A stretch of DNA of 64,000 nucleotides, from contig JALXFE010000182.1 in NCBI GenBank assembly GCA_027069135.1, positions 67,175 through 131,174 on the forward strand, in the 5' to 3' direction. Every line of letters begins with the position of its first letter. The first letter of the stretch is position 1. This stretch comes from Thermoanaerobaculia bacterium (lineage in GTDB: Bacteria > Acidobacteriota > Thermoanaerobaculia > Multivoradales > JAHZIX01). Both the position numbers and the translations under genes were made by a program. Shown here in pieces: positions 1-14,794 of the stretch. The notes under the pieces are model-generated. The model was not told where the DNA came from and made no database searches. It was given only the letters and a program-made list of their open reading frames with translations.

Positions 1-1186
1 CATCCTGTTGGGCAACTATTTCAAAGCCGAGAACCTCCTCGATCTCAAGACTCGGAATGTCCTGCCGAACGATCTGGACCGGGCGACCAACGGCGGCGGG
101 GTTACGTTCTGGCTCAACGTGGCGAAGGCCGAGGCCCCCGGTGGCCGAGCCTTCGAGGAACGAACCGTCGAGGCTGGATTGGCCCACCACACCGGGTGGA
201 CCCTGGATCTGGGCCACGGCGATCTGGACAACGATGGCGACCAGGATTTCTATCTGGCCGGGGATTACGGGACGGATCGGTTGTTTATGAACCGAGGGGA
301 CGGCCGATTCAAAGATGTGACGGCCACAGCGATCGGTTTTGATACCCGCAAGGGAATGAACGTCGACATGGGGGATTACAACCGGGACGGCTACCTCGAT
401 ATCTACGTGACCAACATCACGGACGAGTACATGAAGGAATGCAACATGCTGTGGCACAACAACGGGGACGGAACCTTCGTGGATCTGTCGAGGGAGACCG
501 GGACCTGCGACACGGATTGGGGGTGGGCCGGAAAGTTCGCGGATTTTGACAACGACGGCTGGGAAGATCTCTTCGTTGTGAACGGCCTTCGTTCCGCCGG
601 GGAGCGCAATTACATCCCGGCCCTCCTGGAAATGATCGTGACCCCGAACGTCGATTTTTCCGATATCGACAGCTATCCGGATATCGGGAATATGACCTGG
701 AGTGGCTATCAGAAGCAGCGGCTCTTTCACAATCTCTCGGACGGCACCTTCAAGGAGGTCGCCGGAGCGGCGGGGGTGGACAATGACCTCGACGGTCGGG
801 GTGTCGGCATCGGCGACTTCGACAACGACGGCCGGCTCGATATATACCAGACCAACGCCAACCAGCCCGCCTTGATGTTCCACAACATCGCCGAAAAAAG
901 CGGGCATTGGCTGCAGGTGCAGCTCCGAGGCACGGTGTCGAATCGCGACGCCATCGGAGCCCGGGTGACCCTACGCTCCGGCGGAGTGTCCCAACTGCGG
1001 GAGGTCAACGGTGGCAACGGGTATGCCAGTCAGGAGACCTCCCGACTGCATTTTGGCCTAGGAGCTGCAACCAAAATCGAGTCGTTGGAGATTCGCTGGC
1101 CTTCCGGGATCCTCCAGACCCTGCGGCCGACCCGGGTGGACACTCTCCTCATCATCGACGAAACGCGAAAGGCGGCGAGCTCCTGA
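1..1186 (+). CDS. FG-GAP/VCBS-repeat protein with C-terminal ASPIC/UnbV domain (CRTAC1-like). 5' end lies outside the window.
   Basis: Open frame from the window edge with no start inside. Repeated Dx[DN]xDGxxD calcium-binding-like motifs (DLDNDGDQD, DFDNDGWEDL, DFDNDGRLD). C-terminal '...RDAIGARVTL...GGNGYASQETSRLHFGLG...IRWPSG' is typical of the ASPIC/UnbV domain. Stop TGA at 1184-1186. Confidence 0.8.
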   Translation, partial: ILLGNYFKAENLLDLKTRNVLPNDLDRATNGGGVTFWLNVAKAEAPGGRAFEERTVEAGLAHHTGWTLDLGHGDLDNDGDQDFYLAGDYGTDRLFMNRGDGRFKDVTATAIGFDTRKGMNVDMGDYNRDGYLDIYVTNITDEYMKECNMLWHNNGDGTFVDLSRETGTCDTDWGWAGKFADFDNDGWEDLFVVNGLRSAGERNYIPALLEMIVTPNVDFSDIDSYPDIGNMTWSGYQKQRLFHNLSDGTFKEVAGAAGVDNDLDGRGVGIGDFDNDGRLDIYQTNANQPALMFHNIAEKSGHWLQVQLRGTVSNRDAIGARVTLRSGGVSQLREVNGGNGYASQETSRLHFGLGAATKIESLEIRWPSGILQTLRPTRVDTLLIIDETRKAASS

Positions 1187-4100
1187 TGGCTATCGATAGG
1201 GCTCGTTCCCAGAGGCTGTTTCTGGCCGTTGCATGCTTGGTCCTCGGGGCGACGGTAGGGCCGGTACTCAGGGTCGGGGCAACGAATTCTGTGGAAGAAA
1301 AGCTGTGGCAGCACCGCAATCTCGGAAAGGCCTTCTACGAGAATCCGGCGACGCAATACGAAGCCGTGAGTGAATTGCGCAAGGCTCTGGAGCTCGCACC
1401 GAGCTCGGCGATAGAGAGGGTCAACTACGGGCTCTCCCTGCTCCGGGCCGGCCAGGAAGCCGAAGGCATCGTGGAGTTGGAGAAAGCCCAGAAGCAGGAC
1501 CCTTCGATCCCCCATACCTGGTTCAACCTGGGGATTGCCTACAAGAAGGCCTCGCGCTATGACGATGCCCGCCGGCAACTCGAGGGGATGATCGCTCGGG
1601 TACCGGACGATGCCATCGCCCACTACAACCTCGGGATCCTCTTCAAGCTCGACGGCAATCTGGAGAAGGCCCTGTTCCACCTGCAGCGCGCCGCCCGCCT
1701 CGACCCGACGTTGGCGGGGCCCCATTTTCAGTTGGCGACGGCCTATCGTCAGGCGAAACGGCCGGAGGATACCCGGCGCGCCATGCAGCGCTTTCGTGAG
1801 ATCAAGGCGAAGAAAGGCGACACTACGGAAGATCTGGAGTGGAGCTTCTACTCGGAGCTGGCGGAGGCTCGGCTGCCGGAGCATGCCAAGGCGGTCGGCA
1901 AGGTGGTGTCCCTGCGCCTCGGGGCGGTGGAGGTCTCGGGCGGCTTCGACCCGGGCAGCTCAGGCCTCGTGATCCTGGACCTCGATGGCGACGGAGGCCG
2001 GGACCTGATCGCCTGGTCGAAGGCGGGTATCAAAGCCTTTCGGGACGCCGCGACGAAGGCCCAAGTCGGGCTCGGGAACCTCGAGGGGATTCTCGATATA
2101 GCACCGGCGGATTTCGACAACGACGGATTGACGGATCTCGCGGTGGTTCAAAAGAGTGGGCCGAAGCTGTGGGTCAATACGGGAGGTCGGTTTCGAGCCA
2201 GCCCGACGGAGATGCCCAAGGGCAGCTTTCGGCGTGTCCTTTGGCTGGATGACGATCACGACTACGATCTCGACCTGTTCCTGCTCGGTAGGAGCTCCGC
2301 CCGCTTACGCAACCGGGGGGCGGCCGGGTTTTCTGACGAGACGTCCGGCTTCCCCTTCGCTGCGGGCAACGCGACCGATGCTGTCGTCTTCGACCTCCTC
2401 GCCGACACCCAGGGCTTCGATCTGGCGGTGGTGTACTCCGACCGGCCGGCGGTTCTTTATCGGGACCGCCTAGGGGGTCGCTACGAACGTCAGGAGTTGG
2501 GAGCCGAGCTCCCGGCGGCACGTCGGATCATCGCCCACGACTACGACCACGACAGCTGGACCGACCTGATCGCCGCGGGGGAGCGGGGCCTGGTGCTGCT
2601 CCACAACCAGCAGGCCGGAGGGCTACACCATCGAAAGCTGGTGGCCGTCGCCGGGCCCGAGGTCACGACCTCGGCCCTGGGCTTCGCGGATCTGGAGAAC
2701 CGCGGCGTCAGCGACCTCCTGACGACCGCCGGAGTGCACCGCAACCAGGGCCTTGGCCGCTTCGCCGCGGTCGGCTCGGACCTGGAAGGGACATCCGCCG
2801 TTGCGAGTGCGGATTTCGACGGGGACGGGCGCATCGACCTTGCGACCATCGACGGACGCGGCTCCCTGAAAGTCTGGCGCAACACCACCGAGGGCGGCGG
2901 CTGGCTTGAGGTACGCCTCGAAGGCGTCAAGAACACCCTCCTGGCACAGGGTGCCGAAATCGAAGTCAAGGCCGGCACGCGGTACCAGAAGAAAAGCTAT
3001 CAGGGCACGGCTGTGCACTTCGGTCTGGGGGACGCGAGCCGTGCGGATACGGTGCGCATCACTTGGCCCAATGGCATGATCCAGAACGAAGCTCGCCAAC
3101 CGGGCAACCGGGCGTTCGTCTACAAGGAAGCCCAACGTCTCTCCGGTTCCTGCCCGATGGTCTTTACCTGGAACGGGAAGGGCTTCGAATTCATCACCGA
3201 CGTCCTGGGTGTCGCGCCCCTGGGGGCTGCGGCGGGGGACGGGGAGTACTTTCCCGTGGACCATGACGAATACATCTGGATTCCGGGCAGCTCCCTGGTT
3301 CCGAGAAATGATCGCTACGAGATCCGAATCACCGAGGAGCTTCGAGAGATCGCCTACCTGGACGAGATCCGGTTGATCCCCGTCGATCATCCCGAAGACG
3401 AGGAAATCTTTCATAACGATAAATTCAAGGGTCCTCCCTTTCCGGACTTCCGCCTCTTCGCCGCAGACGAGCGGATCTACCCGGTCGCCGCGCGGGATCA
3501 ACTGCGCCGGGAGGTCCGAGATCGCCTCCTGGCCGCCGACGGGGCCTACGTTGATGGCTTTCGGCGGAATTATTCCGGAATCGGTGAGATGCATACCTTG
3601 GAGCTGGATTTCGCTCCCACGACGGACGCGGCCTCAGCGGTCCTGATCCTCTCCGGTTGGGTCGACTGGGCCGACGGCAGTACCTTCCTGGGGCTGGCCC
3701 AGGAGCGGGGTGACGGCCTTGTGATGCCCTACCTGCAGGTGCGCACACACGAAGGGGGCTGGCAAACGGTGATCGAGGATATGGGAATCCCCGCCGGCAA
3801 ACCTAAAACGATCGCGGTAGACCTCTCCGAGGCCTGGAGCAAGGGGGGGCGGCAGTTTCGCATCGTGACCAATCTCTGCCTTTATTGGGACGAGGTGTTT
3901 CTGATCGACGCCCTTACCCCGTCGGTTCGTCTCGATCCGCTGCAGGCCCAGGAGGCGAAGCTGCGGTTTCGGGGATTCTCCCGGGCGGTGGTGCATGAGA
4001 AGAGATTGCAGCCGGAGCGCTTCGTCTATGCGGATCTTAGGGCCACTTCGATGTGGAATCCGACCCCCGGCCGCTATACCCGCTACGGGGAGGTTCGTTC

Positions 4101-4437
4101 CCTGCTGTGGGCCACCGACGACCGGATGGTCATCATGGGTTCGGGGGACGAGCTAGCCCTATCCTTCGACGCCACTGCCTTGCCTCCTTTGAAGCCAGGC
4201 TGGCGTCGTGATTTCCTCCTCTTTGTCGACGGCTGGGCCAAGGACGGTGATGCCAATACGGCTCACTCACAAACCGTGGAACCCCTTCCGTACCATCGCA
4301 TGCCCCAATATCCCTACGCCGAGCCCGACTCTTTTCCCGACGGCGAGCCCTACCGGCGATACCGGCGAGATTTTAATTCCCGACCCGCCCTCCGATTGAT
4401 TCGACCGTTGGCCGAAAGGAGAGCCCTCGAGCGATGA
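1186..4437 (+). CDS. Large secreted/membrane-anchored protein: N-terminal signal anchor, TPR repeats, FG-GAP repeats, ASPIC/UnbV domain, ~440-aa uncharacterised C-terminal extension.
   Basis: ATG at 1186 overlaps the upstream stop (TGATG). The ORF-track start at 907 would overlap gene 1 and is rejected. Hydrophobic N-terminus 'RLFLAVACLVLGATVG'. TPR-like helices (NLGIAYKKASRYDDARRQLE...AHYNLGILFKLDGNLEKA). FG-GAP motifs (DLDGDGGRD, DFDNDGLTD, DFDGDGRIDL). UnbV signature '...GAEIEVKAGTRYQKKSYQGTAVHFGLG...ITWPNG'. The stop overlaps the next start (ATGA). Confidence 0.8.
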   Translation: MAIDRARSQRLFLAVACLVLGATVGPVLRVGATNSVEEKLWQHRNLGKAFYENPATQYEAVSELRKALELAPSSAIERVNYGLSLLRAGQEAEGIVELEKAQKQDPSIPHTWFNLGIAYKKASRYDDARRQLEGMIARVPDDAIAHYNLGILFKLDGNLEKALFHLQRAARLDPTLAGPHFQLATAYRQAKRPEDTRRAMQRFREIKAKKGDTTEDLEWSFYSELAEARLPEHAKAVGKVVSLRLGAVEVSGGFDPGSSGLVILDLDGDGGRDLIAWSKAGIKAFRDAATKAQVGLGNLEGILDIAPADFDNDGLTDLAVVQKSGPKLWVNTGGRFRASPTEMPKGSFRRVLWLDDDHDYDLDLFLLGRSSARLRNRGAAGFSDETSGFPFAAGNATDAVVFDLLADTQGFDLAVVYSDRPAVLYRDRLGGRYERQELGAELPAARRIIAHDYDHDSWTDLIAAGERGLVLLHNQQAGGLHHRKLVAVAGPEVTTSALGFADLENRGVSDLLTTAGVHRNQGLGRFAAVGSDLEGTSAVASADFDGDGRIDLATIDGRGSLKVWRNTTEGGGWLEVRLEGVKNTLLAQGAEIEVKAGTRYQKKSYQGTAVHFGLGDASRADTVRITWPNGMIQNEARQPGNRAFVYKEAQRLSGSCPMVFTWNGKGFEFITDVLGVAPLGAAAGDGEYFPVDHDEYIWIPGSSLVPRNDRYEIRITEELREIAYLDEIRLIPVDHPEDEEIFHNDKFKGPPFPDFRLFAADERIYPVAARDQLRREVRDRLLAADGAYVDGFRRNYSGIGEMHTLELDFAPTTDAASAVLILSGWVDWADGSTFLGLAQERGDGLVMPYLQVRTHEGGWQTVIEDMGIPAGKPKTIAVDLSEAWSKGGRQFRIVTNLCLYWDEVFLIDALTPSVRLDPLQAQEAKLRFRGFSRAVVHEKRLQPERFVYADLRATSMWNPTPGRYTRYGEVRSLLWATDDRMVIMGSGDELALSFDATALPPLKPGWRRDFLLFVDGWAKDGDANTAHSQTVEPLPYHRMPQYPYAEPDSFPDGEPYRRYRRDFNSRPALRLIRPLAERRALER

Positions 4438-7391
4438 GCACACCAGAAAGTCCCAAGAGCCGCCCGAAGACCGCCGTCCGGGCCAAGAGGCCCAAGGCTT
4501 TACCGCCGGGCTTCAAGCGCCGCCGGCCCGCCCTGGGACGGCGTTTGACCAAGTTGCTCTCCTTCGTCTTCGCCCTCTTCGCGCTCTTGGCGATCAATTC
4601 CACCTACCTGGTGGGGGTGTCGGTGATGGAATGGTGGAACGGCGAGACCTACCAGAACTGGTTCTATCTGAATATGTTTCTTGTGCACCTGCTCCTGGGT
4701 GCCCTGATCCTGTTTCCCATCCTGGTGTTCGGTGTCTGGCATTTCCGGAACACCTACGAGCGGCCCAATCGGCGAGCCGTCAAGGTCGGCGTCGCTCTAT
4801 TTGGATGCTCCCTCGTCCTGCTCGCCAGCGGCATCGTCTTGACGAGGTTGGAAGGGTTGATCGTCGTCAAAGATCCACAGATTCGTTCCATCGCCTATTG
4901 GGCCCATGTGATCACTCCTATTCTCGTGGCCTGGCTTTTCGTCCTGCACCGTCTCGCGGGGAAACGGATTCGGTGGAAAGTCGGCCGGCGGTGGGCCACC
5001 GTGGCGGCGGTGTTTGCCGCCTCCATGCTGCTCTGGCAGGCCCAGGATCCTCGAAGTTGGAACGTCGAGGGGCCGGCTACCGGGGAACAGTATTTCTTCC
5101 CGTCTCTTTCGCGCACCGCGACAGGTGACTTCATTCCGGAAGAGGTCCTGATGAACGATCAATATTGTCTCGAATGTCACGAGGACAGCCATGAGACCTG
5201 GGCCGTTTCCGCGCATCGCTTCAGCTCATTCAATAACCCCGCCTATCTCTTTTCGGTACGCGAGACGAGACGGGTCGCTTTCGAGCGGGACGGTGATGTT
5301 CACGCTTCCCGATTTTGCGCCGGCTGCCACGACCCGGTGGTGTTTTTCTCAGGCAAGTTTGACGATCCGGAATTCGATGACGAGAGCGATCCGACGGGTC
5401 AAGCGGGGATCACTTGCACTGCCTGTCATGCGATCACCCATGTGAACAGTCCGCGGGGGAATTCCGACTACACGATCGAAGAACCGGTGCACTATCCCTT
5501 TGCCTTTGCGGAGAACAAGAGTCTGCGGTGGATCAACCGGCAGCTGGTCAAGGCCAAGCCGGAGTTCCACAAAAAGACTTTCTTGAAACCGCTGCACAAA
5601 TCGCCGGAGTTCTGCGGTACCTGTCATAAGGTCCATCTTCCCGAGGAGTTGAACAAGTACAAATGGCTGAGGGCTCAGAATCACTACGACTCCTATCATC
5701 TCTCGGGGGTCTCCGGGCACGGCGTCAGCAGCTTTTATTATCCCGAGAAGGCCGAGGAGAGCTGCAACGGCTGCCATATGGAGTTGCAGCCCTCGGAGCA
5801 ATTCGCCGCCGCGAGCTTCGACACCTCCGGGGAACGAACGATCCACGACCATCAATTCCCCAGCGCGAACTCGGCGATTCCTCACTTGCTCGACATGCCA
5901 AGTTGGGTCTTGGAGCGTCACCGCGCATTTAACGTCGGGGCCATGAGGCTCGATATCTTCGGCCTCCGGGAGGAGGGGCGGATCGACGGCGAACAGATGG
6001 CTCCATTACGCCCTGAGGTTCCGACTGTCAAGCCCGGCGAAACGTACCTTCTGGACGTCGTCATCCGGACCCTGAAGCTGGGCCATCATTTCACCCAGGG
6101 GACGACGGATTCAAACGAAATATGGCTTGACGTTCGGGTGACCGGTCAGCGTGCCACCGGCATCGAGACCTTTGGCCGGAGCGGTGGCCTGGGGGCGCGG
6201 AATCAAGTCGATCCCTGGTCTCATTTTGTAAACTCCTATGTTCTCGATCGTCATGGACATCGTATCGATCGGCGCAACGCTCAAGATATTTTCGTCTCCC
6301 TCTACAACCACCAAATTCCGCCGGGAGCTGCATCGACGATCCACTATCGTCTGGAGGTTCCGGAGGATGTCCGCGGACCGATCACCATCGAGGCGGACCT
6401 CTACTACCGCAAATTCGATACCCGGTTCATGGAGCATCTCTCAGACAGCGGCTCAGCCGTCAACGAGCTTCCAGTGTTGAGGCTGGCTTCCGACCGCATC
6501 GTTCTACCCGTCGCGGGAGTCGGAGTCGAGATCGCCGGATCTTCTTCTCCGATTCCCGAGTGGGAGCGCTGGAACGACTACGGGATCGGTCTGTTGCTCA
6601 AGGGGGGGAAGACCAAGGGGGAGCTGCGGCAGGCCGAGGAAGCCTTTCGACGGGTTGAAGCCCTGGGCCGTCCGGAGGGTCCGCTGAATCTCGCTCGGGT
6701 CTACATCGCCCAGGGTACGGTGCGAGACGAGGCCATTGAGGCTCTCGACCGTGCCGCGTCCTTCGATCCTCCAGCGCCACCGTGGACCGTCGCGTGGTTC
6801 ACGGGAATCGTCAACAAACAGAATGGATTCCTCGACAAGGCGATCGCGAACTTCGAATCCATCGTCGCTCTCGACACGGCGGAAACTCGGGATCGCGGGT
6901 TCGATTTTTCCCAGGACTACCGCCTTCTCAACGAGCTGGGGCAGACTCTATTCGAACGAGCCAAGGCGGAGCGGGGGGAGGCTAGAGCCGCCGCCCGGGC
7001 CAGCCTGTTGAACAAGGCGGCGCAACGATTCGAGCAGACGTTGGCGTTGGACCCGGAGAACACCACGGCTCTGTACAACCTCGACCTCGTCTACCGTCAG
7101 CTGGGCCAAGCCGAGGCGGCGGCCCGGTACCGCGATCTCTACCTGGTCTACAAGAGCGACGACAACGCCCGGGATCGGGTGCTGACCATCGCCCGGCGAC
7201 AGGATCCTGCGGCGAATCACAGCGCCGAGGCCATCGTGATTTATGACTTGCACCGCGAGGGTGCTTCGGAGCTGGGGGGGCTCAGTCGTCGGGTGGAGGC
7301 CTTCGTGCTCACGCCTACCGAGTCCCGTCGTACCGAAGAGCCGAAAGTGGCCTCCCTCGGTATCCGAGATCTGGAGGATTCTGAGCGATGA
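4434..7391 (+). CDS. Membrane-anchored multiheme (5x CxxCH) c-type cytochrome with C-terminal TPR repeats.
   Basis: Five predicted TM helices within the first ~200 aa. Five heme-binding motifs: CLECH, CAGCH, CTACH, CGTCH, CNGCH. C-terminal TPR-like region (NLARVYIAQG..., ALYNLDLVYRQLGQAEAA). ATGA overlaps with both neighbouring genes. Confidence 0.8.
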   Translation: MSTPESPKSRPKTAVRAKRPKALPPGFKRRRPALGRRLTKLLSFVFALFALLAINSTYLVGVSVMEWWNGETYQNWFYLNMFLVHLLLGALILFPILVFGVWHFRNTYERPNRRAVKVGVALFGCSLVLLASGIVLTRLEGLIVVKDPQIRSIAYWAHVITPILVAWLFVLHRLAGKRIRWKVGRRWATVAAVFAASMLLWQAQDPRSWNVEGPATGEQYFFPSLSRTATGDFIPEEVLMNDQYCLECHEDSHETWAVSAHRFSSFNNPAYLFSVRETRRVAFERDGDVHASRFCAGCHDPVVFFSGKFDDPEFDDESDPTGQAGITCTACHAITHVNSPRGNSDYTIEEPVHYPFAFAENKSLRWINRQLVKAKPEFHKKTFLKPLHKSPEFCGTCHKVHLPEELNKYKWLRAQNHYDSYHLSGVSGHGVSSFYYPEKAEESCNGCHMELQPSEQFAAASFDTSGERTIHDHQFPSANSAIPHLLDMPSWVLERHRAFNVGAMRLDIFGLREEGRIDGEQMAPLRPEVPTVKPGETYLLDVVIRTLKLGHHFTQGTTDSNEIWLDVRVTGQRATGIETFGRSGGLGARNQVDPWSHFVNSYVLDRHGHRIDRRNAQDIFVSLYNHQIPPGAASTIHYRLEVPEDVRGPITIEADLYYRKFDTRFMEHLSDSGSAVNELPVLRLASDRIVLPVAGVGVEIAGSSSPIPEWERWNDYGIGLLLKGGKTKGELRQAEEAFRRVEALGRPEGPLNLARVYIAQGTVRDEAIEALDRAASFDPPAPPWTVAWFTGIVNKQNGFLDKAIANFESIVALDTAETRDRGFDFSQDYRLLNELGQTLFERAKAERGEARAAARASLLNKAAQRFEQTLALDPENTTALYNLDLVYRQLGQAEAAARYRDLYLVYKSDDNARDRVLTIARRQDPAANHSAEAIVIYDLHREGASELGGLSRRVEAFVLTPTESRRTEEPKVASLGIRDLEDSER

Positions 7392-9380: not shown

Positions 9381-11174
9381 ATGAAAGTACCGGCCGCCTT
9401 GATGCTGGCCCTTTTCGCCCTGGGAGGCTGCGGCGCTGAGCCTCCCAGCGCTCCCGAAGCCGCCGACGAGGGCCGGGAGCTCGTCTCGGCCTTCCGTTTC
9501 GAGGAGGTCGGGCGAGAGTCAGGCCTCTCGTTTCACCATTTCTCCGCCGTGCGCGCAGCACTTCTACCGGAGGACAACGGGTCCGGTCTGGCCTTCGGCG
9601 ACTACGACAACGACGGCTACGACGACCTCTATCTCGCCAACCTGGCCGGCCCGGTATTGATGTCCCGCGACGAGCTCCAGGCGACCCGGGAAGGTGGCAA
9701 GCTGTACCGCAATCTGGGTGACGGAACCTTTGAAGATGTCACCGAGACGGCCGGTGTCGAGCATGTCGGGTGGGACGGCGGGGTCCTGTGGGCCGACTTC
9801 AATGGCGACGGTTGGCTCGATCTGCTGCTGACCGGGATCGACGAGATCGCCCTCTTCGAGAATCTGGGCGGCGGAACCTTCGAGGATCGAAGCGCCGCCG
9901 CCGGTCTGGGGGAGACTCCCTGCATGGCCATGGGGGCGACGGCCGGGGATTATGACCGCGATGGCGATCTCGACCTTTACGTACCCTGCTACGTGGAATT
10001 CCCCTGGGAGCGGGCGCGGGATCGCCCGTTGGTAGGGGGGCGCCCGTCCACCATGACGACACCGGCCAACTATCCACCCCAGGCCAATCGGCTTCTGCGC
10101 AACGACGGTGACGGCCGTTTCGAGGACGTTGCAGCTCCCGCCGGGGTCGCCGACCCCCAAGGGCGCGGGCTCCAGGGTACCTTCGTCGATTTCGACGGCG
10201 ACGGCTGGCAGGATCTCTATGTGGCCAACGATCAAAGCTTCGACCGGCTGTTTAGGAACTCCGCCGACGGAACCTTCGAGGACGTCACCATCCCGGCGGG
10301 CACCCGCGACCCGCGGGCGGGTATGGGGATCGGCCTGCACGACTTCGACGACAACGGCCAGGTGGACCTCTTCCTGACCCATTGGGTCGGAGAGCAGAAT
10401 GCCTTGTACCGCAATATGTCGGATGTGGGTGCCTTGCTCTTCGAGGATCGTGTCTACGAGGAGGGCCTAGGCCCCATCGCCGAAGCCCTGGTCGGTTGGG
10501 GAACGGGCTTTGCCGACTTCGATCTGGACGGATTCGAGGATCTCTTCATCGTCCATGGCTCGACGGTCGAAGACGAGTGGACCCTCGATGTTTTGAAGGA
10601 GCCGAAAATGATTCCTCAGGAGCTGATGGTCTTCGCCGGTAGCGACGATGGCTTCGAGGACGTGTCCGCCGCATCCGGAGCGATTTTCAGGGAGAGATTC
10701 GTCGGCCGAGGCATGTCCTTGGCGGATTACGACCGCGACGGGCGGGTGGATGTGGCGGTGCTGGTTCATAACGGGGAGCCCCTACTCTTGCACAACCGCT
10801 CCGAGCCCCGAGGTGGAGCCTGGCTGGGGATCCAACTGGCCAGCGGAGGCAAGAATCGCTGGGCCGTAGGGTCCAAAGTGACCGTTCACTCGACCACGGA
10901 GGACGGTTCCGCCCGCCGTCAGTCCGCCTGGCGGGTGGTGGGGGAGAGCTACGCCGGTACCCATTCGGCGACCTTGCATTTCGGTCTGGGCTCCGCCACC
11001 GCCGCTCGAGTGGAGGTACTATGGCCCGATGGCAAGATCGATCACTTCGGGCCCGTGCCCCTCGACCGAATCTTGGTGCTCCACAAGGGTTCTCCGACCT
11101 GGCATGAGCTACCCGAGGACCCCGTCGATCCCCGCCCCTGGGGGTCGCTTCCTCTCACTGAATTTGGAGACTGA
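9381..11174 (+). CDS. Lipoprotein FG-GAP/ASPIC-UnbV protein (CRTAC1-like).
   Basis: Lipobox signal 'LMLALFALGGC'. SD GGAGGA 5 nt upstream of ATG. Motifs DYDNDGYDDL, DFNGDGWLDL, DYDRDGDLDL, DFDGDGWQDL, DFDDNGQVDL. UnbV tail 'GSKVTVHS...HFGLGSATAARVEVLWPDG'. Confidence 0.8.
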   Translation: MKVPAALMLALFALGGCGAEPPSAPEAADEGRELVSAFRFEEVGRESGLSFHHFSAVRAALLPEDNGSGLAFGDYDNDGYDDLYLANLAGPVLMSRDELQATREGGKLYRNLGDGTFEDVTETAGVEHVGWDGGVLWADFNGDGWLDLLLTGIDEIALFENLGGGTFEDRSAAAGLGETPCMAMGATAGDYDRDGDLDLYVPCYVEFPWERARDRPLVGGRPSTMTTPANYPPQANRLLRNDGDGRFEDVAAPAGVADPQGRGLQGTFVDFDGDGWQDLYVANDQSFDRLFRNSADGTFEDVTIPAGTRDPRAGMGIGLHDFDDNGQVDLFLTHWVGEQNALYRNMSDVGALLFEDRVYEEGLGPIAEALVGWGTGFADFDLDGFEDLFIVHGSTVEDEWTLDVLKEPKMIPQELMVFAGSDDGFEDVSAASGAIFRERFVGRGMSLADYDRDGRVDVAVLVHNGEPLLLHNRSEPRGGAWLGIQLASGGKNRWAVGSKVTVHSTTEDGSARRQSAWRVVGESYAGTHSATLHFGLGSATAARVEVLWPDGKIDHFGPVPLDRILVLHKGSPTWHELPEDPVDPRPWGSLPLTEFGD

Positions 11175-11177
11175 CCT

Positions 11178-11906
11178 ATGAGATTTCCCCAAGTTTTTGT
11201 CCCGGGCGCCGAGGTGGCCCTCGTCGCCTTGAGTCTCGCCGCCTGCACTACCGCGGACAGCACGGCGCCCGGGCCCGGAACCGAGACCGCGGACACATCG
11301 AGCGCCAAGACCGTGACCGGCGGCAAGCCCTATCACGGTCTCTTGGAGTATCGGGCCAAGGACGCCAAACTCGCGTTGGTGCGCCCTACGCTGGTGACGG
11401 CCGCCGAGGCGGCCCTGGCCTCCGGAGTCCGCGTGGTCGGAGTGGCGGCGGACGGTGAGAGCCGTGCCTATCCCCTATATGTCTTGAAGAACCATCAGAT
11501 CGTCAACGATCAGGTAGGGGGAACGCCGATCGCGGCGTCCTGGTGAGCCTCCGAGCAATCGGTCGTGGTTCACGACCGCCGCGTCGGAGAGAAAGAACTG
11601 ACCCTCGGGGTCTCCGGAAAGCTGATCGATGGCAACCTCGTCATGTACGACACGGAGACGGATTCCTTATGGCACCAGGCCTCCGGGGAGGCCAAGGACG
11701 GTGAGTTAGAGGGCCAGCAGCTGGCCGAGCTACCCGCCGAGGAGTGGGGTGTGTATCGCTGGGGAGAGTGGCTCGAGCTCCATCCGGAGACCTTGGTCCT
11801 GACCTGCGCCCACTGCGAGGGTCGTGGGGAAGCCACCGGAACGATCGACGAGTTGCACCGAGAGAAGGCCGAGAGTGAGAAAGGTGATGGACATAAGGAG
11901 GGGTAG
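11178..11906 (+). CDS. DUF3179-family lipoprotein interrupted by a single in-frame TGA (11544-11546). Candidate selenoprotein or recently inactivated gene.
   Basis: Lipobox 'LSLAAC'. The two track ORFs 11178-11546 and 11565-11906 are in the same frame, separated only by the TGA. Sequence around the TGA (...YPLYVLKNHQIVNDQVGGTPIAASW*ASEQSVVVHDRRVGEKELTLGVSGKLIDGNLVMYDTETDSLWHQ...WLELHPETLVLT) matches the DUF3179 core as I recall it (...GGTPvavtYCPLCgtg..fdR.vdg..ltFgvSGlLynsNlvmyDreTeSlWsQ), with the TGA at the position of the first conserved Cys. Confidence 0.5.
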
Positions 11907-12534
11907 CTCCGGGAGGATCCCGGGAGCTCGGAGGCGTCTCGCCGGTCCTGTTCTTCTTCTGGCGGGGTTCCTCTTCGGGGGCCTGGGCTGTGGCGCCCCG
12001 CCGTCCGACGCTCTCCCCGACGCCGCCCAGCCTGCGTCTTCGGCGGCCCAGGTCGCCCGCACGCTGCCAGGCCCTGACTTTGAGCTCCTCGGCCTCGACG
12101 GCGAGCGGCATCGTCTTTCATCCTATCGGGGCCGGATCGTACTGGTGAATTATTGGGCCACCTGGTGCCTCTCCTGCCGTGACGAGATTCCGGTGCTCAA
12201 CCGTCTGCACGAAGAATTTGCCAACCGCGGTGTCGCCATCGTCGGCGTCGCCACCGACGAAGATGCCGAGACCAAAGTCGTGCCCTACGTCGAAAAGATG
12301 GCCATGGCCTATCCCGTCCTTCTGGATCCTCAGGCGGTCAGCGCGTCGATTTTCGGCGGCTTCGCCGGCTATCCCAGTACCTTTATCCTCGATCCCCAGG
12401 GCCTGATCTACTCCTCCTATCTGGGCGCACAGGAAGAGAAGACCTTCGCCGACGACCTTCGCTACCTCCTGCAAGCTGCACCCAGCGAAGGCGCCACCCT
12501 TCCCGCGGGAGCCATTTCACACCCGGTGGAATAG
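11887..12534 (+). CDS. TlpA/ResA-like periplasmic thiol:disulfide oxidoreductase (thioredoxin fold), lipoprotein.
   Basis: WCxxC active site 'YWATWCLSCRDEIP'. Lipobox 'LGCG'. The track ORF starts at 11824, but the internal ATG at 11887 (MDIRR...) gives the signal peptide. Overlaps the 3' end of the DUF3179 gene. Confidence 0.8.
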   Translation: MDIRRGSSGRIPGARRRLAGPVLLLAGFLFGGLGCGAPPSDALPDAAQPASSAAQVARTLPGPDFELLGLDGERHRLSSYRGRIVLVNYWATWCLSCRDEIPVLNRLHEEFANRGVAIVGVATDEDAETKVVPYVEKMAMAYPVLLDPQAVSASIFGGFAGYPSTFILDPQGLIYSSYLGAQEEKTFADDLRYLLQAAPSEGATLPAGAISHPVE

Positions 12535-12640: not shown

Positions 12641-14794
12641 ATGAGCCGACACGCGTTTCAAATCCAAGGCCTCGATTGTGCCGAGGAGGTGGCGATTCTA
12701 AAGCGTGAGCTGGGGCCCTTGGTCGGCGAGGAGTCCCTGGCCTTCGACGTCCTCCGGGGCAAGTTGACGGTCTCCGACGGTTCCGTGACGGCCCTGGAGA
12801 TTCAGCAGGCGGTGGCCCGGACGGGAATGAAAGCCGAGCCTTGGCGCTCGACGGCGGAGCAGGATGGGGAGCGGACCCGGCACCGGACTCTGCAGGGTTC
12901 CCTCACCCTGGCCAGCGGATTGGCCATGATCACTGGCTTCGGTACCCATGCCTGGTTGGCCGGCAGCGTGGTCGAGGCCCTCGGTCACCACGGAGGGCAT
13001 GTCGACGAGGGCGTGCCATGGCTCGCGCGGTGGATCTACACCCTGGCCATCGTGACCGGCGGCTGGACGATCTTTCCCAAGGCCCTCTTGTCGCTGCGCC
13101 GCCGGCGCCCGGATATGAATCTCCTCATGACCGTCGCAGTCACCGGGGCGGTGGGCATCGGCGAATGGTTCGAAGCAGCGACGGTGGCCTTTCTCTTCGC
13201 CCTTTCCAACGCCCTCGAAGCCTGGAGCGTCGGGCGAGCCCGGCGCGCTGTCGAGTCTCTGATGAATCTCTCGCCGACGACGGCCCGAATTCGCGATGCT
13301 GCCGGTGAAGAGAAGGTGCTGCCGGCGGCGGAGGTCCCGATAGGCACCCTGCTCCTGGTACATCCTGGCGAAAAGATCCCTCTCGATGGGCGGGTGATCA
13401 CCGGCGTCAGTGAAGTGGATCAGGCTCCCATCACGGGCGAGAGCCAGCCGGTGGCCAAAGAGCCCGGCGATGATGTCTTCGCCGGCACGGTCAACGGCAG
13501 CGGCGTCCTGGAAGTCGAGGCGACCCGGACGGCGGAAGATACGACCTTGGCCCACATCGTGCGGCTGGTGGAAGAAGCACGATCTCAGCGAGCGCCGAGC
13601 GAGCGCTGGGTGGAGCGATTCGCCCGCATCTACACGCCGGTCGTCATGGGGCTGGCCTTGGCCGTGGCCCTGCTGCCGCCGTTGCTCCTCGGCGGGGCTT
13701 GGGGTGTTTGGTTTTACCGGGCCCTCGTGTTGTTGGTCATCGGCTGTCCCTGCGCCTTGGTCATCTCGACACCGGTCAGCGTGGTGGCTGCTCTGACCTC
13801 CGCCGCTCGCCACGGGATCCTGGTCAAAGGGGGAGCGTTCATCGAGCTGCCGGCGCGCCTCAAGGCCATTGCCTTCGACAAGACCGGAACCCTGACCCGG
13901 GGGGAGCCGTCGGTGGTGGAAGTCGTGCCCTTAGCAGAGCATGACGAGGCCGAGCTCTTGGCCCGAGCGGTGGCCCTCGAGGCCCGAAGCCCCCATCCCA
14001 TAGCCCGGGCCATCCTGCGCTACGCCCGGGAGAAAGGGGTCTCCGCCCAGCCGGCGGAAGAGGTCCAGGCGATCCCCGGCAAGGGCATCGGAGGACTTTT
14101 CGCAGGCAAACCCTTCTGGCTGGGCTCCCACCGGTATCTGGAGGAGCGGGAGCAGGAGACGGAGGAGATTCACCAGCGCCTGGAAGCCATGTCCGACGCC
14201 GGCCAGACGATCGTCGTGGTCGGCAACGACAGCCACGTCTGCGGTTTCATCGCCGTCGCCGATGGCCTGCGTCCGGAGGCCCGGGAAGTGGTCGCCCAAC
14301 TGCGCCGGCAGGGCATTGGCCAGCTCTTGCTCCTCACCGGCGACAACCGTGGCACGGCGGCCGCCGTCGCCCGGGAAGCAGGCCTGGACGACGTCAAGGC
14401 CGAGCTCTTACCGGCGGATAAGGTCGCTGCCGTCGAGGACCTGGCGAAGGCCTATGGAGAGGTCGCCATGGTCGGGGACGGCGTCAACGACGCCCCCGCC
14501 ATGGCCCGCGCCAGCCTGGGCATCGCCATGGGTTCAGCAGGCAGCGACGCCGCCATCGAGTCGGCGGATATCGCCCTGATGGCCGACGACCTCACCAAGC
14601 TCCCCTGGTTGGTGCGCCACTCCCACCGCACCCTCTCCACCATCCGCCAGAACATCGGCTTCGCCCTCGGCCTCAAGCTCGCCGTCTTCGTCCTCGCCAC
14701 CGTAGGCTACGCCTCCCTCTGGATGGCCATCGCCGCCGACATGGGAGCCTCCCTGATCGTCATCGCCAACGGGCTGCGATTGCTGAGGGGGTGA
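12641..14794 (+). CDS. P1B-type heavy-metal-translocating P-type ATPase (Cd/Zn/Cu family).
   Basis: N-terminal HMA-like domain (FQIQGLDCAEEVAILK). TM CPC motif 'VIGCPCALVISTP'. Phosphorylation site 'DKTGTLT'. 'SPHPIARAI' HP motif. 'GDGVNDAPAL' hinge. Confidence 0.9.
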   Translation: MSRHAFQIQGLDCAEEVAILKRELGPLVGEESLAFDVLRGKLTVSDGSVTALEIQQAVARTGMKAEPWRSTAEQDGERTRHRTLQGSLTLASGLAMITGFGTHAWLAGSVVEALGHHGGHVDEGVPWLARWIYTLAIVTGGWTIFPKALLSLRRRRPDMNLLMTVAVTGAVGIGEWFEAATVAFLFALSNALEAWSVGRARRAVESLMNLSPTTARIRDAAGEEKVLPAAEVPIGTLLLVHPGEKIPLDGRVITGVSEVDQAPITGESQPVAKEPGDDVFAGTVNGSGVLEVEATRTAEDTTLAHIVRLVEEARSQRAPSERWVERFARIYTPVVMGLALAVALLPPLLLGGAWGVWFYRALVLLVIGCPCALVISTPVSVVAALTSAARHGILVKGGAFIELPARLKAIAFDKTGTLTRGEPSVVEVVPLAEHDEAELLARAVALEARSPHPIARAILRYAREKGVSAQPAEEVQAIPGKGIGGLFAGKPFWLGSHRYLEEREQETEEIHQRLEAMSDAGQTIVVVGNDSHVCGFIAVADGLRPEAREVVAQLRRQGIGQLLLLTGDNRGTAAAVAREAGLDDVKAELLPADKVAAVEDLAKAYGEVAMVGDGVNDAPAMARASLGIAMGSAGSDAAIESADIALMADDLTKLPWLVRHSHRTLSTIRQNIGFALGLKLAVFVLATVGYASLWMAIAADMGASLIVIANGLRLLRG

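Follow-up and report, generated by a model that had tools for sequence, protein, structure and literature searches.

Reviews of 2022 and 2026 (PMC9312934, PMC13188914) include DUF3179 (PF11376), with the motif UxxC/T, among the prokaryotic selenoprotein families, and the entries for the family in both reviews credit the listing to Zhang & Gladyshev 2007 (PMC1976440). The first-pass annotation of the locus described here did not count DUF3179 among the selenoprotein families and was wrong on this point. The catalogued forms are ~390 aa in length and contain two repeats; selenocysteine (Sec) takes the place of the first Cys of a CxxC motif to give U-P-L-C, and there is a stem-loop with G/U in its loop just downstream of the UGA. 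We checked two loci of this full-length type, which read VTW-U-PLCY (L031) and VTW-U-PLCF (L032) and which both have a GGGCAU(A)-GUGU-AUGCCC hairpin after the TGA. In L032 the full-length gene lies beside genes for a 535-aa AhpC-TSA protein and two UGSC-family proteins (L032:4624-6714). UGSC is another catalogued selenoprotein family.

Two 'proteins' of ~230 aa, P0074 and P0048, are the C-terminal fragments of genes of the full-length, two-repeat type reading VTW-TGA-PLC[Y/F]TG. About half of the best 150 representative matches to the C-terminal fragment of the gene described below are fragments of this kind, which suggests that Sec forms are frequent in metagenomes but that gene callers cut them in two.

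The gene that we describe is on the forward strand of a 64-kb stretch of DNA (64,000 nt, the window) from a Thermoanaerobaculia bacterium. It had been proposed that a single reading frame is broken here only by the TGA at 11544-11546, and translation confirms this: 11178-11909 is one frame of 242 codons in which that TGA is the sole internal stop, and the terminal TAG is at 11904-11906. The gene (11178-11906) starts with the ATG at 11178, is preceded by a GGAG at 11165-11168 and would encode a short-form DUF3179 selenoprotein precursor of ~242 aa. Around the internal stop the translation reads GGTPIAASW, the TGA and then ASEQSVVVHDRRV. The N-terminus (11178-11246) reads as a signal peptide with the lipobox L-A-A-C (Cys23), and orthologues have LAAC, LGAC or AMAC at this position. 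As a lipobox at the N-terminus predicts a lipoprotein, the DUF3179 protein of the window is predicted to be exported and lipid-anchored.

With the stop masked, the protein matches the Pfam DUF3179 model with an E-value of 7e-40 and 137.7 bits (gathering cut-off 27), and the match spans profile positions 7-150 of 292 only. The protein therefore lacks the two-repeat domain of 292 positions, and it terminates with C-x-H-C where the full-length members run on into repeat 2. In an alignment of 70 sequences that included database homologues, the TGA (codon 123, very probably read as Sec) shares its column with the first Cys of the CPLC/CSRC motif, as the first-pass annotation had placed it and as in L031 and L032. 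Codons +1 to +6 (11547-11564; A-S-E-Q-S-V) run from the UGA to the GTG at which gene callers start a second gene, and the third of them, Glu126, is in the column of the second Cys. Nearer the C-terminus there is a C-A-H-C (Cys210 to Cys213; 11805-11816). A search of PDB sequences found no relative of the protein and NCBIfam has no model for the short DUF3179 gene.

The gene and its orthologues (the short clade) are the same as the catalogued DUF3179 selenoproteins in Pfam family, in the column used by Sec and in having a G/U-loop stem-loop just downstream, but they differ in other respects. The short forms are ~240 aa long with one repeat and read U-[P/A]-S-E. The residue at +3 is neither the Cys nor the Thr of UxxC/T but Glu in 26/26 short-clade loci that reach it. 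They have in addition a lipoprotein signal and a C-terminal C-x-H-C which is invariant in the clade, being present in every member as CAHC, CGHC, CEHC, CHHC, CDHC, CPHC or CSHC. The hairpin also differs in sequence, being CGGUCGUG-GUY-CACGAYCG in the short clade and GGGCAU-(C)GUGU-AUGCCC in the catalogued forms. Finally, no Cys-form members of the short clade were found. Because the family is already catalogued, the window gene is a new short subtype, an unannotated subfamily with a divergent active-site motif, and not a new family.

Two more distant relatives were seen. L022 (Ga0256833_1010213, 42% GC) has a distant DUF3179 gene with a TGA at the Cys column (L022:2932-2934) and reads VVY-TGA-P-L-H, a would-be UxxH that is neither UxxC/T nor UxxE; its hairpin is marginal (4-bp stem, -7.3 kcal/mol over 60 nt). 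P0107, a protein of 1587 aa, matches the C-terminal fragment of the window gene in six separate stretches (E 8e-42) and looks like a multi-repeat DUF3179 protein.

The DUF3179 family is structurally similar to Rieske (ISP) domains in a fold comparison that used the modelled Cys homologue P0001. Rieske domains such as the NirD small subunit and the Rieske ferredoxins bind a [2Fe-2S] cluster through a CxH...CxxH ligand set; inspection of the sequence shows that this set is absent from the window protein, where the CxxC (as UxxE) remains. Judged by spacing, the CxxC/UxxE probably corresponds to the first Rieske cluster-binding loop (CxH), with the second ligand box lost.

A protein that spans only half of its Pfam model could at first be taken for the product of a decaying gene, and the TGA could be a sequencing or assembly error or the mark of a recent pseudogene of a Cys-containing DUF3179 gene. 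Orthologues were collected by a protein search, after which the DNA was fetched and metagenome and genome collections were scanned, to give 27 loci (L001-L021 and L023-L027) from several metagenomes and five MAGs (four labelled Acidobacteria/Acidobacteriota/Vicinamibacterales and one Polyangiaceae). The protein search gave several 133-140-aa 'proteins', 59-61% identical to the window protein and all ending in AASW, and their partner 'proteins' in the database begin MVHDRRV. TGA is at the identical codon in 27/27 related loci, down to ~50% amino acid identity, and none of the 27 has TAA, TAG, TGC or TGT at this position. The context is SW-TGA-[P/A] in all 27 and SW-TGA-[P/A]-S-E-Q in all 26 that reach further (L021 ends two codons past the TGA and was left out of the count of +3 residues), and the site and its surroundings occur in 22 distinct versions.

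The loci are not close copies of one another, as pairwise dS is greater than 1. On either side of the TGA dN/dS lies at 0.08-0.30, which shows purifying selection on the two halves of the gene in one shared frame. The alignment proposed as a check gave Cys in the TGA column of the homologues, TGA in the orthologues from related taxa and no TGC or TGT among these relatives. As 27 loci assembled independently of one another share this TGA and the short architecture at this level of divergence, the sequence comparisons effectively exclude both a sequencing error and a pseudogene.

A second possibility is that the TGA is a true stop, so that the region would encode a 122-aa lipoprotein fragment and a separate C-terminal protein starting at GTG 11565, with the hairpin as a regulatory structure or one for translational coupling. 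Gene callers do split every orthologue in this way (P0021/29/33/43 and P0093/P0101/P0106) and the GTG is only 18 nt past the stop. However, there is no Shine-Dalgarno sequence before GTG 11565, the two parts always share a frame, and the stop between them is always TGA and never TAA or TAG. Pro is written with four codons within codons +1 to +6, Ser switches between TCN and AGC, and Glu is both GAG and GAA. All six codons of this interval thus change in the manner of coding sequence. The split would also cut a single Rieske-like beta-sandwich domain exactly at the conserved Cys loop. Two genes are therefore unlikely, since the codons in between evolve as coding ones, TGA is the sole stop used and no ribosome-binding site precedes the GTG.

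TGA is the ordinary stop in 5/10 Pfam-supported neighbouring genes, which points to a standard genetic code. Neither a word-indexed search over 5.8 billion clusters nor an exhaustive HMMER search over 1.84 billion representatives gave a Cys form of the short clade, and the close matches in both searches were all fragments that end or begin at the TGA. Taken together, the data strongly support read-through of the UGA and selection on the full-length product. It is conservation that decides this, the hairpin by itself being weak evidence.

The hairpin is at 11560-11578 on the forward strand (cggtcgtg-GUU-cacgaccg; 8 bp, 3-nt loop, -11.6 kcal/mol). It begins 13 nt after the TGA, there are 21 nt from the UGA to the loop, and the perfect 8-bp hairpin that had been reported is exact. 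The model for bacterial SECIS (bSECIS) elements calls for a loop of 3-9 nt, an upper stem of 4-16 bp, a UGA-to-loop distance of 16-37 nt, a minimum free energy of -7.5 kcal/mol or lower, and a G within the first two nucleotides of the loop with G or U after it (PMC13188914); the hairpin agrees with the model in loop, stem, position of the G, spacing and energy. Like the generic bSECIS, as in E. coli fdhF, it is a stable hairpin with an apical loop downstream of the UGA, and its distance of 21 nt, its loop that begins GU and its 8-bp stem are all within the model limits. In comparison with the fdhF SECIS, it has no sequence similarity and no bulged U, and with 3 nt its loop is as short as the model allows. 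A lower stem is possible (~11549-11590, -24.8 kcal/mol) but is not conserved. No relevant Rfam family was found in the window and six loci at the gathering threshold, or in 11480-11680 at permissive E-values. To our knowledge, bacterial SECIS elements are not modelled as an Rfam family.

Such a hairpin can arise by chance. Among 1419 TGA triplets on both strands of the window (62% GC), 4.6% are followed by an equal hairpin, defined as an uninterrupted stem of at least 8 bp within the same loop and spacing limits, and the z-score of the 86-nt fold is only -1.28. The hairpin by itself is therefore not beyond chance and the 86-nt fold is likewise not unusual. Across the 22 distinct sequences the stem is paired in 97.7% of cells. 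One pair varies as GC (14), GU (5) and AU (3), a compensatory change in which the AU state combines a Val-to-Ile substitution in one arm with a silent change, GAC to GAT, in the opposite arm. In four sequences the closing pair is open, which gives a 5-nt CGUGC loop. The other six pairs are invariant and so uninformative either way; classical covariation is thin and rests on the single varying pair.

Codon usage within the stem is more telling. There is no synonymous variation at Ser +5 (TCG in 22/22, although Ser codons are six-fold degenerate), Val +6 (GTC in 22/22) or His +9 (CAC in 25/25). Gln +4 is CAA in 24/25, in contrast with the two other conserved Gln columns of the gene, where CAG has 22/25 and 24/25. 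At Val +8, in the loop, all four codons occur (1.71 bits), and most other conserved four- and six-fold degenerate codons of the gene have an entropy of 1.1-1.9 bits. Selection on an RNA hairpin of SECIS geometry is strongly supported by these data.

If the UGA is read through, the residue inserted could be something other than Sec: Cys, delivered by a tRNA(Cys) resembling tRNA-Sec; the amino acid of an opal-suppressing allo-tRNA; or Trp, by near-cognate read-through stimulated by the hairpin. A tblastn search with E. coli SelA, SelB and SelD gave no matches in the 64-kb window or in any of the loci, and ARAGORN found no tRNA-Sec in the window or in 15 loci; the area searched was the window and ~200 kb of related flanks, and absence there says little. 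A 96-nt 'tRNA-Pro (agg)' 2.2 kb downstream of the orthologue in L025 (L025:12779-12874) is of unusual length and was checked as a tRNA-Sec, but the Rfam tRNA models do not confirm it and the call is probably false.

Sec users are reported from the Acidobacteria (PMC1794560). Mukai et al. describe suppressor-type allo-tRNAs in Acidobacteria, whereas their selC* tRNA(Cys) is from Firmicutes, Thermodesulfobacteria, Nitrospirae and Proteobacteria and is not reported in Acidobacteria (PMC5389517). Other evidence also speaks against a residue other than Sec. The hairpin fits the SelB-type SECIS model and the gene belongs to a known selenoprotein family that has TGA in the same column. Furthermore, if Cys were equally good at this site, TGY would be expected among 27 loci that are saturated at synonymous sites, and none occurs. 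The suppressor-like tRNAs of Acidobacteria leave recoding to another amino acid a small probability.

We therefore favour Sec. The proposal that this is a Sec-for-Cys selenoprotein with a downstream SECIS is strongly supported by the TGA in 27/27 loci, the dN/dS values, the frozen stem codons and the Cys homologues. On this evidence, which is comparative throughout, the gene very probably encodes selenocysteine. The full reading, in which one functional gene at 11178-11906 encodes a DUF3179 protein with a single repeat that is exported and lipid-anchored and has its codon 123 (UGA) decoded as Sec, has in our estimate a probability of about 85%. The hairpin at 11560-11578 would then be a bacterial SECIS, with SelB carrying Sec-tRNA(Sec) binding to the G/U loop while the ribosome is on the UGA, so that Sec is inserted. 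This role is suggested by the anatomy and conservation of the hairpin and by established knowledge of bacterial Sec decoding. A scan of the window for other same-frame ORF pairs split by a TGA found adjacent-gene coincidences only and no second candidate selenoprotein.

The gene immediately upstream (9381-11174, + strand) encodes an FG-GAP/UnbV_ASPIC (CRTAC1-like) lipoprotein according to Pfam. The gene downstream (11887-12534, + strand), which overlaps the end of the DUF3179 gene, encodes a TlpA/ResA-like extracytoplasmic thioredoxin (WCLSC; Pfam AhpC-TSA and Redoxin), and its matches to the NCBIfam ResA, TlpA and WAxxUGC_long models are below the cut-offs. The first-pass annotation had placed the DUF3179 gene in a redox context between a multihaem cytochrome operon and a TlpA thioredoxin. 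The thioredoxin is indeed directly downstream, but the immediate upstream neighbour is the FG-GAP/UnbV_ASPIC gene and the cytochrome is 3.8 kb off.

The TGA that ends the FG-GAP gene (11172-11174) and the ATG of the DUF3179 gene (11178) are in the same frame with one codon between them, and the pair was considered as another TGA-interrupted frame. The separate signal peptide and the GGAG ribosome-binding site of the DUF3179 gene indicate that they are two ordinary adjacent genes.

Of the 23 loci with more than a few bases on the upstream side, 22 have an orthologue of the FG-GAP/ASPIC gene (45-64% identity) immediately before the DUF3179 gene; the exception is L008, which gave no match. A TlpA/ResA-like orthologue (60-67% identity) is directly downstream in 14 loci, with Pfam run on 9 of the 14. 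L024 and two divergent loci, L019 and L020, have no TlpA at this place, which in L020 is taken by a di-haem DHOR protein. These data show a conserved three-gene cassette of FG-GAP/ASPIC lipoprotein, short DUF3179 and TlpA-like thioredoxin.

In the TlpA/ResA/DsbE relays, too, a membrane-anchored thioredoxin-fold reductase is encoded beside a likely periplasmic client, and in the window the two genes are probably co-transcribed. In contrast with the WAxxUGC ResA-like selenoproteins, the window thioredoxin has Cys (WCLSC) and the selenium would be in the putative client, a role suggested by synteny.

P0025 (L034:7-690) is a predicted protein of 227 aa in which the C-terminal part of a short DUF3179 (through ...CAHCEGRGEATGTIDEL) is fused in frame to a TlpA-like domain that has no signal sequence of its own. 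The single contig behind it, of 1151 nt, starts within the gene, and the fusion could be an assembly artefact. In the distantly related full-length locus L031, the neighbouring gene (L031:4823-6690) encodes a protein of more than 900 aa that combines ArsP_1 with FG-GAP and UnbV_ASPIC, so that DUF3179 adjoins FG-GAP/ASPIC in a second DUF3179 locus.

The wider neighbourhood of the window gene contains further genes of these kinds. There are four consecutive FG-GAP/UnbV_ASPIC (CRTAC1-like) genes between 8 and 11174, with the multihaem cytochrome gene interleaved among them. One of the four (907-4437) also has TPR repeats, and only the last (9381-11174) keeps its place beside the selenoprotein gene elsewhere. 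The cytochrome (4434-7391), 3.8 kb upstream of the DUF3179 gene, is a protein of 985 aa that has a membrane anchor at the N-terminus and five CxxCH haem-binding motifs. Its match to Cytochrome_C554 is weak, and that to the NCBIfam multihaem (seleno)protein ExtKL is far sub-threshold (E 1.4e-4; 20.6 bits against a cut-off of 250). In L024 there is a 31%-identical homologue ~6 kb from the DUF3179 gene.

Downstream of the cassette, 12641-14794 encodes a heavy-metal P1B-type ATPase that scores best against Zn/Cd-type models. Its N-terminal metal-binding motif (~12668-12691) reads G-L-D-C-A-E-E-V, a CxxE where CxxC is usual. The resemblance to UxxE in the DUF3179 protein may be coincidence, as the ATPase is not conserved beside the orthologues, and a direct link to metal efflux was dropped for the same reason.

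How the protein might work is suggested by conservation and synteny. Sec would replace the first Cys of a CxxC motif that is probably in a loop of a Rieske-like beta-sandwich, as judged from the fold of the Cys homologue. The second Cys is Glu in this clade, and the C-x-H-C probably supplies the partner thiols or the metal ligands of a selenol-based redox or metal-handling site. The TlpA-like thioredoxin, if co-transcribed, probably keeps the Sec site reduced. The substrate is probably tied to the FG-GAP/ASPIC lipoprotein, which is encoded directly upstream in nearly all related loci. We infer these roles of the C-x-H-C, Glu126 and TlpA from the patterns described above.

A more specific version can be put forward tentatively. 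Once the protein is exported and lipidated, Sec123 would be the reactive centre, at the tip of a Rieske-like domain, together with Cys210, His212, Cys213 and perhaps Glu126, either as a selenenyl-sulfide relay or as a metal site; TlpA would recycle it, and the module would serve the FG-GAP/ASPIC lipoprotein or a substrate shared with it.

None of this changes the concept of Sec decoding. The finding bears on annotation: all the database copies that we found are two 'hypothetical' fragments, one ending in AASW and one starting from VHDRR, and joined gene models would correct them. With this clade, a catalogued selenoprotein family gains an exported form of half the size, in which the active-site motif differs and for which we found no Cys-form relatives. 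The three-gene cassette and the Rieske-like fold lead to concrete hypotheses on the function of DUF3179. One of these, speculative at present, is that the short clade is a distinct, obligately selenium-dependent, lipid-anchored extracytoplasmic protein of one Rieske-like domain with a Sec123/Glu126/C-x-H-C redox or metal centre unlike that of the UxxC/T forms, recycled by a dedicated TlpA-like thioredoxin and acting with a CRTAC1-like FG-GAP/ASPIC lipoprotein. If true, this would give a first functional handle on both DUF3179 and the bacterial ASPIC proteins.
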